A stretch of DNA of 64,000 bases. Source: an uncultured Alphaproteobacteria bacterium (GTDB lineage Bacteria; Pseudomonadota; Alphaproteobacteria; Rs-D84). Made by a program: the position numbers and the translations under genes. Below, piece by piece: positions 1,068 to 55,459 of the stretch. The stretch lies in NCBI GenBank assembly GCA_947367055.1, contig CANBCI010000003.1, forward strand, positions 161,508 to 225,507, in the 5' to 3' direction. Numbering within the stretch: the stretch's first letter is position 1; each line of letters begins with the position of its first letter. The notes beneath the pieces were generated by a model, which had not been told where the DNA came from, searched no databases, and saw nothing but the letters and a program-made list of their open reading frames with translations.

Positions 1068-1152
<85 letters not shown>

Positions 1153-2066: not shown

Positions 2067-2208
2067 GGTTCATCCCCCATTGTTTGCATTTATACAAAAA
2101 CAAAAACCACTGGAAATTATTTCAAGTGGTTGGAGGTAGTAACAATACAAAACGAATTGCCCGGTTATTTATATATATCCCGGCCCCCAACCATTAGTTG
2201 GAGTGTTT
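2067..2208 (-). promoter_or_regulatory. conserved structured leader, copy C (P1 CUCCAAC/GGUUGGGG, P2 CCGGG stem, terminator CCUCCAACCAC...GUGGUUUUUGUUUUUG) upstream of OMP gene
   Basis: The minus strand reads ...ACACTCCAACTAATGGTTGGGGGCCGGGATATATATAAATAACCGGG...CCTCCAACCACTTGAAATAATTTCCAGTGGTTTTTGTTTTTG, 27 nt before the ATG. The architecture matches copies at 11695 and 54820. Confidence 0.5.
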
Positions 2209-2528
2209 AACGCCCGCACAGGCGGTTTTGTATAAGGGTTACTAGCCCCATTTGCAGCAGGACAGCCCATTGCAATCATATTGTATCATATACATTTACA
2301 ATTGCAACCGCCAAAATCTTTTAGAAGACCGGGGCGGGAGTCTACAGACACATCTTTGGTATGTGTTGGTTTATTCAATATATTCACCAACCTCCCAACC
2401 CCGAATGGGTTGAAAGTTTTACGCCTGTACGGGCAACCAAAGACCGAGTCTGTATATTCTCGGGCAACAGAAATCCTGTTGCAATCGGTACTATATCCTA
2501 AATATCCGGAATATGCAATAAAATAAAA

Positions 2529-11515: not shown

Positions 11516-11694
11516 GGCTGATAATTATAAATATATTTTTTTCATTTGCAAATCAATAAAGGTAGGCACAAATTCGCGTAAATTACCATTTGACCTTAAA
11601 AATCTTATGTGATTTAATCCGTGCTGACGACGGGGATCTCGTCGTTGGGTCTTACTAACCCGCAGTGTTGATGTCAGCGATGACATAAAATATC

Positions 11695-11834
11695 TCCAAC
11701 CTGTTATGCGGTTGGAGTGTGCCCAATATTTTGAATAAGCACGACAATTTCAACACATTGTTAGTAAGCTCCAACCACCAGATTTATTTGGTGGTGTTTT
11801 GTTTGATTAACCGCACAAAACAAGGAGTCTGGCG
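11695..11834 (+). promoter_or_regulatory. conserved structured leader, copy A (P1 CUCCAACC-UGUUAUGC-GGUUGGAG; P2 GUGC/GCAC; terminator GCUCCAACCACCAGAUUUAUUUGGUGGUG-UUUUGUUUG) upstream of PAP2 gene
   Basis: The hairpins and U-run are visible directly. The terminator ends 25 nt before ATG 11835. It is homologous to copies B and C. Confidence 0.5.
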
Positions 11835-12392
11835 ATGTCAAAAAAACTTAATATACTGATGGCGGTGTTGCTGTCGGGGCTGGTTCTGCTGCTGGTTTCG
11901 ACCAGGGCGCATGCCGGCGGACCATTTAGCAGTAAAAACAAACTGGGGGATGTCATGATGGTCATGAGTCCCACATACGCGCTGGGGATGACAATTATGG
12001 CCAAAGATTGGGCCGGGACGCTACAACTTGGCGAATCCATACTGGCCGCCCAGGTGGCCAGCGAGGGTATAAAAGCCCTGGAACTGGAACGGCGACCAAA
12101 CGGCGGGGATAAAAAATCTTTCCCCAGCGGCCATGCGGCGGGCGCATTTTCCGGGGCAATGTTTGTTCACAAAAGGTATGGTTGGAAACCGGCGCTTATT
12201 CCATATGCAATGAGCCTGGTCGCCGGCTGGAGTCGTGTAGAGGTCCGCGCGCATTATTGGCACGATGTTTTGGCGGGGGCGGCGGTATCGGCACTGTTCA
12301 CCTGGGTTTTGGTGGATAAATATGTACCCAAGGGTGTTGATGTCGCGGTCGGCATGGACGGCGCCCGCGTTGGTTTCAAAACCCAGTTTTAA
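11835..12392 (+). CDS. PAP2 family phosphatase (periplasmic/membrane phosphatidic acid phosphatase type 2)
   Basis: It carries the KSFPSGHAAGAFSGAMFV and YWHDVLAGAAVSA PAP2 signature motifs plus a signal peptide. Confidence 0.75.
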   Translation: MSKKLNILMAVLLSGLVLLLVSTRAHAGGPFSSKNKLGDVMMVMSPTYALGMTIMAKDWAGTLQLGESILAAQVASEGIKALELERRPNGGDKKSFPSGHAAGAFSGAMFVHKRYGWKPALIPYAMSLVAGWSRVEVRAHYWHDVLAGAAVSALFTWVLVDKYVPKGVDVAVGMDGARVGFKTQF

Positions 12393-12425: not shown

Positions 12426-12463
12426 TAATTCTTGGCGTCTATTATTTAGATATTCTTGGCGTC
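12414..12463. repeat. tandem direct repeat (2 x approx 24 bp: ATTATTTAGATA(A)TTCTTGGCGTC), second copy overlaps 3' end (…GACGCCA) of tRNA-Arg
   Basis: Direct visual repeat. TTCTTGGCGTC occurs at 12431-12439 and again at 12454-12463. Confidence 0.6.
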
Positions 12464-12532
12464 CCCAGCAGGACTCGAACCTGCATCTAATTCTTAGGAG
12501 GAACTTGTTCTATCCTGTTGAACTATGGGGAC
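12457..12532 (-). tRNA. tRNA-Arg (anticodon CCT)
   Basis: The reverse complement GTCCCCATAGTTCAACAGGATAGAACAAGTTCCTCCTAAGAATTAGATGCAGGTTCGAGTCCTGCTGGGGACGCCA folds as a cloverleaf. Anticodon loop is CTCCTAA. Confidence 0.8.
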
Positions 12533-54655: not shown

Positions 54656-54819
54656 TTTCTTTTATCCTTATGTTTTACTGTTCGTGGCATTATAGCAACC
54701 TTTTGCTTGCGCCGCAAATCTTATATTGATATTATTATTTTGTTATCGGGTGTTTCGATAATGGGGTTTAGCGACCCCGTCGTATACGTCGGCACGTCGC
54801 GTTATGACGCGCAAAAAAT

Positions 54820-54943
54820 CTCCAACCCATGGGTTGGAGGGGTGGAAATATCAAAAATACCACCACTATTTATACGATAGTCGCTAACCTCCAACCACAC
54901 AGATTCTGCGTGGTTTTTTCATATGATGTTATGGAGAACGACA
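54820..54943 (+). promoter_or_regulatory. conserved structured leader, copy B (P1 CUCCAACC-CAUG-GGUUGGAGG; P2 GGUGG/CCACC; terminator CCUCCAACCACACAGAUUCUGCGUGGUU-UUUUC) upstream of Cys-rich secreted protein gene
   Basis: Visible directly. The terminator U-run ends about 24 nt before ATG 54944. Confidence 0.5.
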
Positions 54944-55435
54944 ATGAAACAATTTTTTATAGCATGCGCCGGCGCTATTGCAACCGCACAGGCTTTGGCG
55001 GTAATATCACCCCAACAAAACTACTGCATACTTTGCCAAATACCAAACCTGGGAGCAGGCGAAACGATTACATACGCCGATGTATGCTATTCTGATGAAT
55101 TGGCCGATTGCAAGTCTTTTCGTCCGTCCGTTATCGGAACTACAAATCATGTGCAAACTCTTTCAAGTGGAAAACTGAATTGCACCGTAAATTACAATAC
55201 CGTCAGTGCAACATGCACTAAAACCATATCCTATCGGTGCGAAAGCGGATACTTCGGCACCCCGACCAAAGGAATCTCTGGATGCACCAGTTGCGCCGAC
55301 GCCACCGGAAACAGCAATGCAACATCAAAGGTGGGTGCAACCGCAATCACCGATTGCTATATACCGGCCGGCAACTCCGACGAAGACACAACCGGACATT
55401 TTTCATATACCGACGATTGCAAATATTCAAACTAA
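54944..55435 (+). CDS. secreted Cys-rich protein (163 aa; CESGYFG…C EGF-like motif)
   Basis: It has a signal peptide MKQFFIACAGAIATAQALA and 14 Cys. The start is at 54944 (GGAGAA SD), not the track start 54923. Confidence 0.6.
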   Translation: MKQFFIACAGAIATAQALAVISPQQNYCILCQIPNLGAGETITYADVCYSDELADCKSFRPSVIGTTNHVQTLSSGKLNCTVNYNTVSATCTKTISYRCESGYFGTPTKGISGCTSCADATGNSNATSKVGATAITDCYIPAGNSDEDTTGHFSYTDDCKYSN

Positions 55436-55459
55436 AAACGGGGGCCCGGCCCCCGTTTT

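Follow-up and report, generated by a model that had tools for sequence, protein, structure and literature searches.

In the ANTAR/EutV system with its EutX (Rli55) decoy sRNA, and likewise for CsrA with CsrB, the RNA motif of the regulator occurs in mRNA leaders and is iterated in a decoy RNA. Terminator/antiterminator platforms, such as T-box, PyrR, BglG/LicT RAT and ANTAR targets, have an intrinsic terminator in the leader, an alternative helix that uses the 5' part of the terminator stem, and a conserved structured domain whose formation precludes termination; they occur in many copies per genome, at functionally related genes. sRNA-Xcc1 (Rfam RF02221) is described as an 88-nt trans-acting sRNA of Xanthomonas integron cassettes. 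Its G-rich closing helix of 9-10 bp encloses two hairpins, of which the first has an AU-rich loop containing AAUA and the second is short, and ACC and U's come after it. As an 88-nt sRNA it was seen by Northern blot (PMC2996969), and Xylella has 7 copies, 5 of them in tandem (PMC12189769). It has been reported 5' of symE and an ORF6N gene (10.1101/2025.06.18.660453; 10.1101/2020.03.17.996009), and directly 5' of diverse accessory genes (PMC12189769; 10.1101/2025.06.18.660453; 10.1101/2020.03.17.996009).

Here, we describe a leader RNA of ~190 nt that is present in four copies (A, B, C and a degenerate D) in a 64-kb stretch of DNA from an uncultured alphaproteobacterium, referred to as the window. 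We consider it probable (roughly 0.72) that each copy, in which promoter, leader and terminator together form a self-contained unit, regulates the gene that follows by transcription attenuation through two exclusive folds. The leader shares all of the features listed above with the terminator/antiterminator platforms. It differs from them in having a three-way junction (3WJ) whose closing helix would serve as the antiterminator. This helix is rivalled by a near-identical upstream box (P1), and the loop and joiner of the junction are engaged by a long anti-antiterminator rod that is specific to each copy. In Rfam, none of these platform families matches the leader. With sRNA-Xcc1 it has in common the G-rich closing helix (GGCCGGGGG:CCCCCGGCC there, GGUUGGAGG:CCUCCAACC here), the succession of two hairpins, ACC and U's, and a multi-copy, at times tandem, arrangement. 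In contrast to sRNA-Xcc1 as described, the module here is part of a ~190-nt leader on chromosomes of gut Alphaproteobacteria, where it is accompanied by a competitor box, a 5' domain particular to each copy and a terminator that overlaps it.

A preliminary description of this DNA, made from the sequence alone, assigned the element to no described riboswitch or leader family. Rfam agrees: the gathering threshold was reached by no family, RF02221 included, in the whole window, nor in copy B or in 14 related copies, and in copy B RF02221 was absent even at E up to 10. T-box and the other Rfam cis-regulatory families were neither above nor near threshold in the window and the related copies. RF02221 did score below its gathering score of 53 on related copies (32.5 bits for L015, 36.8 bits for L071 and L009), with E < 0.01 in 3 of the 14 tested. 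In three relatives, the model covers the module over its full length (positions 1-87), and the RF02221 consensus structure fits the fold called State II below exactly, comprising the helix of 3' arm and distal box, P2 and the CUAU hairpin. A BLAST search of E. coli genomes with the RF02221 consensus gave no match, and none of 12 loci rescanned with Rfam, out of 42 on viral contigs with the pattern GGCCGGGGGG...CCCCCGGCC, was RF02221. Literature searches returned unrelated primers and aptamers only for the box sequences, and for "Enterousia"/"riboswitch" only general riboswitch papers, none of which dealt with Enterousia.

Copies of the leader in the window

Two covariance models were used, R1, made from relatives and scanned over the window, and R2, which describes the 3WJ module. 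The features of the four copies are given below, with the evidence for each in brackets.

Copy A: 2095-2307, minus strand; core is the covariance-model match at 2126-2250(-), 90.1 bits
2280-2307, minus: promoter, TTGCAA, 16 nt, TACAAT, with TG upstream of it (promoter scan)
2252-2275, minus: hairpin H1 (MFE fold)
2204-2249, minus: 5' domain with G-box 2246-2249, strand a 2238-2244, strand b 2225-2233, H3 2211-2224 and joiner (MFE fold)
2196-2203, minus: P1 5' arm, CUCCAACU (sequence and R1 match)
2127-2193, minus: 3WJ module with 3' arm GGUUGGGG, P2, CAAU-b'-AUUG hairpin, a' and distal box CCUCCAACC (R2 45.3 bits, E 1.8e-9)
2095-2129, minus: terminator, CCACUUGAAA-UAA-UUUCCAGUGG with one mismatch, then UUUUUGUUUUUG (MFE fold)
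1482-2066, minus: gene for an outer-membrane beta-barrel protein, SD GGGGGA at 2073-2078 (Pfam OMP_b-brl, E 9.6e-7)
Copy B: 11590-11805, plus strand; core is the covariance-model match at 11646-11778(+), 102.8 bits
11590-11618, plus: promoter, -35 TTGACC at 11590-11595, extended -10 TGaTTTAAT at 11610-11618 (read from the sequence; matches family TGnTAnnnT)
11626-11646, plus: hairpin H1 at the predicted RNA 5' end (MFE fold)
11647-11693, plus: 5' domain with G-box GGG, strand a 11653-11659, CC, strand b 11665-11671, H3 11671-11686 and A-rich joiner
11694-11701, plus: P1 5' arm (box 1, CUCCAACC), the competitor strand (sequence and P1 covariation)
11709-11777, plus: 3WJ module (R2 62.5 bits, E 5e-14; State II fold backed by covariation)
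11710-11718, plus: shared 3' arm of the module, GGUUGGAGU
11719-11744, plus: P2 of the module, loop CCAAUAUUUUGAAUAA
11745-11760, plus: CAAU-b'-AUUG hairpin of the module
11760-11767, plus: strand a' of the module
11768-11776, plus: distal box of the module, G followed by CUCCAACC
11774-11805, plus: intrinsic terminator, hairpin 11774-11795, then GUUUUGUUUG (terminator scan and MFE fold)
11835-12392, plus: gene for a PAP2 phosphatase with signal peptide, SD AAGGAG at 11822-11827 (Pfam PAP2, E 3.4e-14)
Copy C: 54727-54919, plus strand; core is the covariance-model match at 54762-54898(+), 84.1 bits
54727-54735, plus: extended -10, TGaTATTAT (sequence and family alignment)
54745-54759, plus: hairpin H1 (fold)
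54763-54819, plus: 5' domain with G-box GGGG, strand a 54768-54775, strand b 54779-54786, long H3 54787-54812 and joiner AAAAAAU (MFE fold)
54820-54827, plus: P1 5' arm, CUCCAACC (sequence)
54831-54897, plus: 3WJ module with 3' arm GGUUGGAGG, P2 GGUGG/CCACC, CUAU-b'-AUAG hairpin, a' and distal box CCUCCAACC (R2 53.7 bits, E 1.1e-11)
54895-54919, plus: terminator, CCACACAG-AUU-CUGCGUGG, then UUUUUU (MFE fold)
54944-55435, plus: gene for a Cys-rich secreted protein, SD GGAG at 54933-54936 (signal-peptide-like N-terminus read from the translation)
Copy D, degenerate: 2308-2495, minus strand, adjoining A on its upstream side; covariance-model match at 2331-2462(-), 57.6 bits
~2490-2495, minus: -10, TATAGT
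2466-2480, minus: hairpin H1 (fold)
2331-2462, minus: core (R1 57.6 bits, R2 47.8 bits)
2392-2416, minus: P1, CUUUCAACCC/GGGUUGGGAG (fold)
2331-2340, minus: distal box, CUCCCGCCCC
2308-2337, minus: 3' hairpin with a poor U-run, overlapping the -35 of A

From 5' to 3', a unit begins with an extended -10 promoter and a hairpin at the 5' end, continues with the copy-specific 5' domain, P1, the 3WJ module and an intrinsic terminator, and is followed ~50 nt further on by an SD with ATG. After the four copies, the next-best R1 match in the window reached only 17 bits, and no match fell inside a gene of the ORF list. The window contains the word CTCCAACC 7 times, where 1.15 occurrences would be expected, and 0 of 100 shuffles reached this count.

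The sequence and the covariance model place A, B and C where the preliminary description had put them, with P1, the variable P2 stems (GUGC/GCAC, GGUGG/CCACC, CCGG/CCGG), the conserved P2 loop and, ahead of each start codon, a hairpin with a U-run. Its coordinates for the element have to be extended, the true start being ~55-70 nt further upstream, and the stretch thus missed contains H1, the G-box, strands a and b, and H3. The "degenerate P1-like hairpin" that it noted at 2386-2420 is present and is part of the complete fourth copy D, so that D and A form a tandem pair of units.

A simple sigma-70 scan listed no plus-strand promoter in the region of C, and it did not flag the promoter of B because the T at position 2 fails the rule of the scan. 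Across the family, a -10-like hexamer is located 60-100 nt 5' of P1 in 111 of 122 relatives; the family extended -10 is TGnTAnnnT, with the TA...T columns at least 90% conserved, and the H1 loop is mostly a GNRUU pentaloop. The simple terminator scan of copies A, B and C flagged B only, since the hairpins of A and C, which were found by folding, have one stem mismatch each. A strict terminator test was passed by 108 of the 122 copies, with the hairpin beginning at the CC of the box.

Covariation of two alternative folds

On comparative grounds, we show two mutually exclusive predicted folds (State I and State II), together with a promoter, a terminator and a defined position relative to the gene. 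Alignment with MAFFT alone gave a poor RNAalifold consensus, and it was replaced by per-sequence folds projected on the alignment and by covariance-model alignments. The long-range helix of State I was present in 115 of 122 single-sequence MFE folds, and the MFE fold of copy B shows both a:a' and b:b'; these two helices covary across the family with all four Watson-Crick pair types. The genome-contig relatives were found with the box sequences fixed, and the competing helices were also evaluated in 65 distinct relatives that were found by a pattern leaving the boxes unspecified. In these, changes in the 5' arm of P1 go together with changes in the 3' arm and in the distal box (e.g., CUCCUGAC/GUCAGGAG/CCUCCUGAC), and whole-box subfamilies swap all three strands.

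Counts of double changes overstate the number of independent events, because the copies are related paralogues and orthologues and the alignments are covariance-model-fitted, and with this proviso, in the 65 relatives P1 was 81.5% paired, with 46 double-change cells against 21.3 in shuffles, and the helix of 3' arm and distal box was 93.2% paired, with 52 against 11.3 (0 of 500 shuffles); across the family, State I was 94.9% paired, compared with 76% in shuffles and ~40% with the partners slid, with double changes at 24 pairs; and the fold of the 3WJ module was 93.4% paired, compared with 78% in shuffles, with double changes in 8 of 10 closing pairs. State II further accounts for non-nested covarying pairs, namely (194,214) with UA55/AU45, (3,17) with GC66/AU26 and (120,224) with GC89/UA12, and the metagenome copies, an independent set, show these pairs again. 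In the P2 loop, conservation of GAAUA and AAUA is at least 90% at each position, as measured in sequences chosen without regard to them. One strongly covarying pair, 6:192, is accounted for by neither fold; it is not part of a helix, since 56 of 111 copies have no pairing at 8:191, by which it would be extended.

The central proposal of the preliminary description, that the P1 3' arm can pair with either the P1 5' arm or the box ahead of the terminator, is thus borne out by the covariation of both helices in the 65 relatives. Its equation of this second box with the 5' arm of the terminator has to be given up, as only the last 2-3 nt of the box fall within the terminator stem. Three features go beyond that description: the pairing of the 5' domain with the 3' module, the closure of an autonomous 3WJ by the alternative helix, and the tandem arrays.

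The calculated energies of State I and of the forced State II were -62.6 and -49.5 kcal/mol for A, -66.1 and -54.2 kcal/mol for B, and -65.8 and -53.7 kcal/mol for C. State I is stabler by 12-16 kcal/mol in silico.

Family distribution and downstream genes

More than 190 relatives were found in MAGs of gut Alphaproteobacteria (Candidatus Enterousia and allies) and in gut metagenomes. They include more than 118 loci on genome contigs, almost all from gut Alphaproteobacteria MAGs, and a metagenome set of 78 copies across 100 loci. One match seemed to contain a tRNA T-arm, but this was simply a genuine copy read on its reverse strand. The association with gene starts in a single orientation, which had been put forward as a check on the element, holds for 115 of 129 copies: these are followed by an SD and an ORF on the same strand, with the start at a median of 51 nt past the box end, while 14 of 129 have no obvious ORF within 400 nt. 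Additional copies occur at ~1 per 120 kb of flanking sequence, which, together with the four copies in 64 kb, suggests at least ~15 copies per genome.

Tandem arrays, named in advance as a sign against a leader, do occur, yet each of them terminates at a gene start. One locus (L191) has four tandem units. Another (L197) has five tandem stand-alone modules whose closing helices are compensatory; this array begins 7 nt past a TATAAT, lies upstream of two canonical leaders and was seen once in ~1.3 Mb. Over the same ~1.3 Mb, stand-alone modules were present only in L197 and L045, and in the window the module is always inside a leader. The motif was also found on three IMG/VR viral contigs. The combination of an own promoter and terminator, tandem arrays and a likeness to an 88-nt sRNA family also fits free-standing sRNA genes.

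The genes behind A, B and C are as previously characterized, encoding OMP_b-brl and PAP2 proteins (Pfam) and a Cys-rich protein with a signal peptide. The accompanying view that only envelope genes are involved is right as regards secreted and envelope genes but too narrow, since ~25% of the copies precede small HTH-like proteins. Pfam and PHROGs gave nothing on the downstream proteins apart from OMP_b-brl, PAP2 and weak HTH matches, so that the regulon offers no metabolite hint. The Cys-rich protein behind C matched nothing in Pfam or PHROG and falls in one cluster with 6 other leader-associated proteins that have a common C-terminal CYIPAG...CYY motif. In L052, a related MAG, the syntenic site lacks both leader C and its gene, an absence that suggests cassette-like behaviour.

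Proposed mechanism

In State I, the G-box and strands a and b of the 5' domain would pair with three elements of the 3' part, namely the joiner a', the hairpin loop b' and its CCUC, to form a long rod with a four-way junction (b:b', H3, P1, P2) at its end. Box 1 would keep the shared 3' arm GGUUGGAGG in P1, the terminator would form, and transcription would halt about 30-50 nt ahead of the start codon. In State II, the 3' arm would instead pair with the distal box CCUCCAACC(A/G) and close a compact 3WJ, composed of the closing helix, P2 and the CUAU:AUAG hairpin, while the G-box would fold locally on CCC. Because this closing helix takes the bottom 2-3 bp of the terminator stem, RNA polymerase would read through into the gene. 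Termination at the U-run and conditional read-through are thus predictions made from the sequence.

We infer from the modelled energies that State I, and with it termination, is the default, because it is 12-16 kcal/mol stabler; for the same reason, switching must be kinetic or strongly assisted. Presumably, a trans-acting effector (protein, small molecule or RNA) recognizes the 3WJ and stabilizes State II during transcription, most likely contacting the invariant GAAUA...AAUAA loop of P2, and it would thereby switch on a regulon of secreted and surface proteins and small HTH-like regulators. The small HTH-like proteins behind ~25% of the leaders would be the first candidates for this effector. 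Against this picture stands the variable core of the 3WJ (a'), a feature seldom met in a small-molecule pocket. The rare stand-alone module arrays could serve as decoys for the effector; the five-module array fits the decoy logic of EutX and CsrB by analogy only, the architecture of the motifs being unrelated.

A wider reading, which we hold tentatively and with the odds somewhat against it, is that this is a previously unrecognized form of effector-dependent antitermination. An sRNA-Xcc1-like 3WJ would be the antiterminator, the box and the 5' rod would keep it unfolded, the modules would be decoys, and the system would set much of the secreted and surface proteome together with small HTH regulators. 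Under this reading, the widespread sRNA-Xcc1 RNAs of integrons, phages and islands would be antiterminator domains that act in cis and not classical trans-acting sRNAs.

Alternative explanations

The units may also be regarded as genes for trans-acting sRNAs related to sRNA-Xcc1, with the terminated ~180-nt transcript or a processed ~70-90-nt 3WJ as a product that acts on other mRNAs or titrates a protein, and with the position in front of genes being secondary or dual. This agrees with the own promoter and terminator of every unit, with tandem arrays that have no ORFs between them (four units in L191, five modules right after a -10 box in L197), with the sub-threshold likeness of the module to RF02221, and with sRNA-Xcc1 having been Northern-detected (PMC2996969) and having 7 copies in Xylella, 5 in tandem (PMC12189769). 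We nevertheless think it unlikely. An SD and ORF on the same strand lie within ~50 nt in 115 of 129 copies, and because a gap of ~50 nt has no room for another promoter, the downstream genes would be expressible solely by read-through. A covarying helix that overlaps the terminator is needed by an attenuator and not by a plain sRNA, stand-alone modules are rare (L197 and L045 in ~1.3 Mb), and sRNA-Xcc1 itself has been reported 5' of symE and an ORF6N gene (10.1101/2025.06.18.660453; 10.1101/2020.03.17.996009).

It appears improbable that the 3WJ is a cis RNA that modifies RNA polymerase for processive antitermination in the manner of put from phage HK022 or EAR from Bacillus, in which case its own and later terminators would be ignored, no external effector would be needed and the 5' domain would set the frequency of the junction. 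No Rfam antiterminator family was similar at E up to 10, and simple structural antitermination suffices because the closing helix physically overlaps the terminator stem. Processive antitermination would suit a module that is placed directly between promoter and terminator, is autonomous and can be iterated, and whose relatives have been reported on phages, integrons and islands before diverse cargo genes, as well as the motif on the three IMG/VR contigs; the elaborate, covarying, copy-specific anti-antiterminator domain, on the other hand, implies regulated switching.

Several copies per genome (4 in 64 kb), tandem arrays and the lack of leader C and its gene at the syntenic site of the related MAG would also be features of a repetitive or mobile element of the REP/BIME/MITE/Correia type, which has promoter-like and terminator-like sequences without a dedicated switch. 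The copies are, however, not near-identical: a:a', b:b', H3 and P2 differ with compensatory changes of all four pair types, and both alternative folds have been kept by selection. This, the constant orientation to the next gene with a tight spacing to the start codon, and the 0 matches inside genes of the window make such an element very improbable.

A ribosome-mediated leader-peptide attenuator or an SD-sequestering translational switch, with the perfect GGAGG of the shared 3' arm as ribosome-binding site or the CUCC of the boxes as anti-SD, is scarcely credible in spite of a short SD-plus-GUG/ATG ORF within the leader in 50 of 122 copies, since GGAGG is paired in either fold, the true SDs are 3' of the terminator, beyond the conserved element, and the short ORFs vary in presence, frame and length (the P1 loops of A, B and C each have an ATG in a different frame, and that of D lacks one), the leader-peptide reading being rejected because these frames are not conserved.

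Implications

Transcription attenuation through two exclusive folds would make these leaders, if true, a large new orphan class of regulatory leader RNA in a gut lineage that is known from metagenomes only. The switch is directly testable in vitro without culture, since covariation already defines both conformations. Its design is unusual in that three strands vie for one arm and each copy has a private anti-antiterminator, which may keep dozens of paralogous switches free of cross-talk. If true, it would also offer a concrete, testable rereading of sRNA-Xcc1, a poorly understood family that is carried by mobile elements in pathogens of plants and animals. In the gut lineage itself, it would mark out a co-regulated set of unannotated Cys-rich secreted proteins that are likely to matter for interaction with the host or with neighbours.

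Leader copies in the window

On the evidence of the sequence, the leader is a real and well-supported new family of attenuator-type leader RNAs. When the sequence was re-read, the positions and quoted sequences of the three copies in the preliminary description were found to be right. The copies and the genes behind them are as follows.

Copy A: 2095-2307, minus strand, before an OMP_b-brl gene
Copy B: 11590-11805, plus strand, before a PAP2 gene
Copy C: 54727-54919, plus strand, before a gene for a Cys-rich secreted protein (54944-55435, plus strand)
Copy D: 2308-2495, minus strand, degenerate copy

The sequence CTCCAACC occurs 7 times in the window as compared to 1.15 times expected by chance (7 reached by 0 of 100 shuffles), and leaders A, B, and C have single-sequence fold z-scores of -4.3 to -4.9. 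In their folds, a GGGG-plus-7-nt segment about 50 nt 5' of hairpin P1 pairs with 7 nt plus CCUC preceding the second box, and a second long-range helix is nested within this one; the sequences of both helices vary among the three copies with complementarity kept. Because these helices reach about 50 nt 5' of P1, the leader is about 190 nt long, not 140 nt, so that the element had been correctly placed but its extent, with the long-range helices undescribed, had been underestimated.

Searching the window with R1, a covariance model of the leader (131 positions), gave exactly four copies, B (102.8 bits), A (90.1 bits), C (84.1 bits), and D (57.6 bits, 2331-2462, minus strand), with the next match at 17 bits. 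R2 (69 positions), which models only the module, i.e., the three-way-junction part of the leader, again found just these four. Copy D, previously taken for a degenerate hairpin at this site, is a complete unit that forms a tandem with A, immediately upstream of it, and has a weak terminator overlapping the -35 of A.

The region 470-567 on the minus strand, which follows the 1071-1152 tRNA gene at a downstream distance of about 500 nt, matches R1 weakly and only in part (17.2 bits, E 0.04). An outer helix resembling a:a' (CUGAUAC/GUAUCAG) and a hairpin resembling P2, with UAUUGAAUA, are present there, but P1 and the boxes are not, and the region may be a decayed leader copy. On the minus strand of 11694-11717 and 54820-54839, P1 and the A-rich joiner resemble an intrinsic terminator (CTCCAACC...GGTTGGAG, then ATATTTTATG or ATTTTTTGCG) and were flagged by a terminator scan; the resemblance may be incidental, or the sequence might stop antisense transcripts from entering the leader.

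Distribution and shared architecture

An exact-pattern genome search (P1 plus second box, one genome per species) listed at least 118 loci, almost all in gut Alphaproteobacteria MAGs, and the hosts among the matches listed include Candidatus Enterousia, "Rickettsiales bacterium", and rumen, horse, mouse, and human gut bins. Conserved genes common to the window and Enterousia MAG loci have 70-78% nucleotide identity, and matches of the window PAP2 gene were restricted to ENA metagenome contigs. Metagenome contigs were searched with the P2 loop and CWAT/ATWG motif only, a pattern chosen to remove box ascertainment bias, and the first 100 metagenome loci held 78 copies confirmed by R1. Three IMG/VR contigs classed as viral (L121-L123) carry the exact P1-plus-second-box pattern.

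One architecture is common to all 122 of the 122 full-length instances.

5' part: extended -10 TGnTAnnnT; H1; G-box; strand a, CC, strand b; H3; A-rich joiner; P1
Middle: P2 (loop GAAUA...AAUAA, sometimes with an extra inserted hairpin); C(U/A)AU, strand b', AU(A/U)G; strand a'
3' end: CCUCCAACC; hairpin and U-run; SD and start codon

Of 116 relatives, 55 have a GNRUU pentaloop in H1 (GUGUU 24, GGGUU 11, GAGUU 7, GUAUU 7, and others); in the window, H1 lies at 11626-11646 (B), 2252-2275 (A), and 54745-54759 (C). The RUU of the pentaloop could pair with AAU of GAAUA in the P2 loop, which is invariant and leaves no covariation signal possible.

Promoter, terminator, and downstream genes

A -10-like hexamer is present 60-100 nt upstream of P1, mostly at 80-90 nt, in 111 of 122 copies, and its TA...T columns are at least 90% conserved in the family alignment. 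The strict terminator test, in which the hairpin starts at the CC that ends the box and U occupies at least 5 of the following 8 nt, was passed by 108 of 122 copies (median stem 7 bp, -6.9 kcal/mol). The one-orientation link to gene starts that had been proposed was borne out by a same-strand SD and ORF behind 115 of 129 copies, the ORF starting a median of 51 nt past the second box (40-60 nt in 76 copies), and there is no room for a second promoter between leader and ORF. Among the 14 copies with no nearby ORF are L013, L030, L034, L046, L062, and L065, several of which share conserved-looking sequence after the terminator (e.g., UGUGGUGAUGYGACC in L030, L034, and L062) that may represent a further non-coding element or a start site lying farther off.

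The downstream proteins form clusters of secreted proteins (one family of 28 and two of 7 each), a family of 18, mostly of about 75 aa (range 55-210), and 12 small proteins of about 60 aa; many singletons outside the clusters have signal peptides. Clear Pfam matches were limited to the OMP beta-barrel and PAP2 of the window, a PHROGs search of the downstream proteins gave no match, and the small proteins matched HTH_31/HTH_3 weakly.

tRNA genes lie about 70-330 nt from the leader or leader-controlled gene at copies A and B (window 1071-1152 and 12460-12532, both minus strand) and in two or more related loci (L009 1406-1478; L029 144-216), and leaders may insert beside tRNA genes. The genes flanking leader C and its Cys-rich gene (54656-55459) are also neighbors in a related MAG (L052, 3792-4321), where they flank a different gene, of 150 aa and on the opposite strand, and no leader; being absent from this interval, the leader C-gene unit behaves like a variable cassette.

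Two mutually exclusive folds

In State I, the shared 3' arm pairs with box 1, the 5' arm of P1. Across 111 model-aligned copies, this nested structure (G-box:CCUC, a:a', b:b', H3, P1, and P2) is 94.9% paired, as compared to 76.0% in column shuffles and 38-47% with partners slid by 1-3 columns, and both partners have changed in 24 pairs. All four Watson-Crick pair types are used in a:a', b:b', H3, and P2; P1 does not vary in this set, in which the search pattern had fixed it.

Strong covarying pairs that do not nest within State I emerged from mutual information with APC correction. Pair (194,214) (U-A 55, A-U 45) belongs to a local C(U/A)AU:AU(A/U)G hairpin with b' as its loop, and pair (3,17) (G-C 66, A-U 26, G-U 15) to a local G-box:CCC hairpin with strand a as its loop. 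Pair (120,224) (G-C 89, U-A 12) joins the nucleotide after the P1 3' arm to that before the second box and lengthens the helix GGUUGGAGG:CCUCCAACC. Taken as a structure, the non-nested pairs are 93.5% paired versus 81.5% in shuffles, and the extra covarying pairs replicate in the independent metagenome set. There, the boxes vary by subfamily, with the P1 5' arm, 3' arm, and distal (second) box changing together.

Box subfamilies (P1 5' arm; shared 3' arm; distal box)
CUCCUGAC; GUCAGGAG; CCUCCUGAC
CCUCUCGC; GCGAGAGG; CCUCUCGCC
CUCCUG(U)C; GCAGGAG; CCUCCUGCC
CCCCAAC; GUUGGGG; CCCCAACC

In a gap-free alignment of the three boxes from 65 distinct copies of the metagenome set, pairing reaches 81.5% in P1, with 46 double-change cells (21.3 in shuffles), and 93.2% in the helix of the 3' arm with the distal box (State II), with 52 such cells (11.3 in shuffles; 52 reached by 0 of 500). 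An R2-based State II alignment is 93.4% paired versus 78.0% in shuffles and at most 64% when slid. The distal helix is usually longer than P1 (9-10 bp versus 7-9 bp). It takes in the CC that ends the box, often with one base more, and since the terminator stem begins with these 2-3 nt, State II excludes the terminator and vice versa. The switch hypothesis of the preliminary description was essentially correct in its alternative 3' arm pairings, which covary, and incomplete in missing the 5' long-range helices.

Strong, isolated Watson-Crick covariation (U-A 47, C-G 44, A-G 9) links the pyrimidine that immediately follows the G-box to the purine at the foot of the P2 3' strand (alignment A4 columns 6 and 192; about 11651 and 11743 in copy B), and it replicates in the metagenome set (U-A 43, C-G 18). 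This pair fits neither state, and its neighbor 8:191 is unpaired; it may reflect an intermediate of strand invasion or, in a bent State I, a tertiary pair.

In the CUCCUGAC/GUCAGGAG subfamily (metagenome loci L174, L189, L199, L201:4095-4264, L228, L247, and L248), H3 is far longer and contains an additional GC-rich hairpin (e.g., GUCGGAAUAUGUUCAAAUGGCGCAGAUGCGCC...), which suggests a lineage-specific elaboration of the 5' domain.

Tandem arrays and stand-alone modules

In locus L197, five stand-alone modules lie in tandem directly after TATAAT (170-561), followed by two canonical leaders (628-765 and 854-986) and a gene for a clear XRE-family HTH protein. The module closing helices have compensatory changes (GGGG:CCCC, GGAG:CUCC, GGAUG:CAUCC), and the linkers permit a P1-like hairpin between the distal box of one module and the next module. 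Other stand-alone modules are rare: about 0.73 Mb of genome loci gave one more, at L045:1136-1201. The occurrence of such modules indicates that the module is an autonomous folding unit, and for this reason a putative effector would be assigned to State II rather than to the 5' domain.

In locus L191 (177-982), four complete promoter-leader-terminator units follow one another at intervals of about 205-255 nt, and a single SD and ATG lies behind them at about 1027; unit 2 has a compensated P1 change (GGCUGGAG with CAUCCAG) that its distal box does not share.

Relation to known RNAs

The preliminary description recognized no described riboswitch or leader family here, and likewise no Rfam family was at threshold in the window or in relatives. 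The only recurrent sub-threshold match is RF02221, sRNA-Xcc1 (32.5-36.8 bits versus a gathering score of 53), which covers the full model and is placed exactly on the module; its Rfam consensus structure, a closing helix and two hairpins, equals State II of the leader. sRNA-Xcc1 is described as an 88-nt sRNA of Xanthomonas (PMC2996969), reported upstream of symE in integron cassettes (10.1101/2025.06.18.660453) and of an ORF6N gene in APSE phages (10.1101/2020.03.17.996009), and Xylella has seven copies, five in tandem (PMC12189769). The comparison was made through the Rfam model, and the relation is one of resemblance, not membership.

Probable default state and proposed mechanism

Sequence and covariation support two exclusive folds, one coupled to the terminator, together with a private promoter and a fixed position before the gene. 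The minimum free energy fold (State I) was compared with a fold forced to include the distal helix (State II).

Predicted energies of the window copies (State I; forced State II; kcal/mol)
Copy A: -62.6; -49.5
Copy B: -66.1; -54.2
Copy C: -65.8; -53.7
Copy D: -64.5; -48.0

From these modeled energies, we infer that termination is probably the default state, and read-through would therefore need State II to be trapped or stabilized. A putative effector would bind the three-way junction during transcription, probably at the invariant P2 loop, with the near-identical upstream box acting as competitor and the copy-specific rod as anti-antiterminator. Terminator/antiterminator leaders are a known kind of mechanism; the family, the three-strand competition, the private anti-antiterminator, and the link to sRNA-Xcc1 appear to be undescribed. 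The private a/b sequences may prevent cross-talk among paralogous leaders, and the module arrays may act as decoys.
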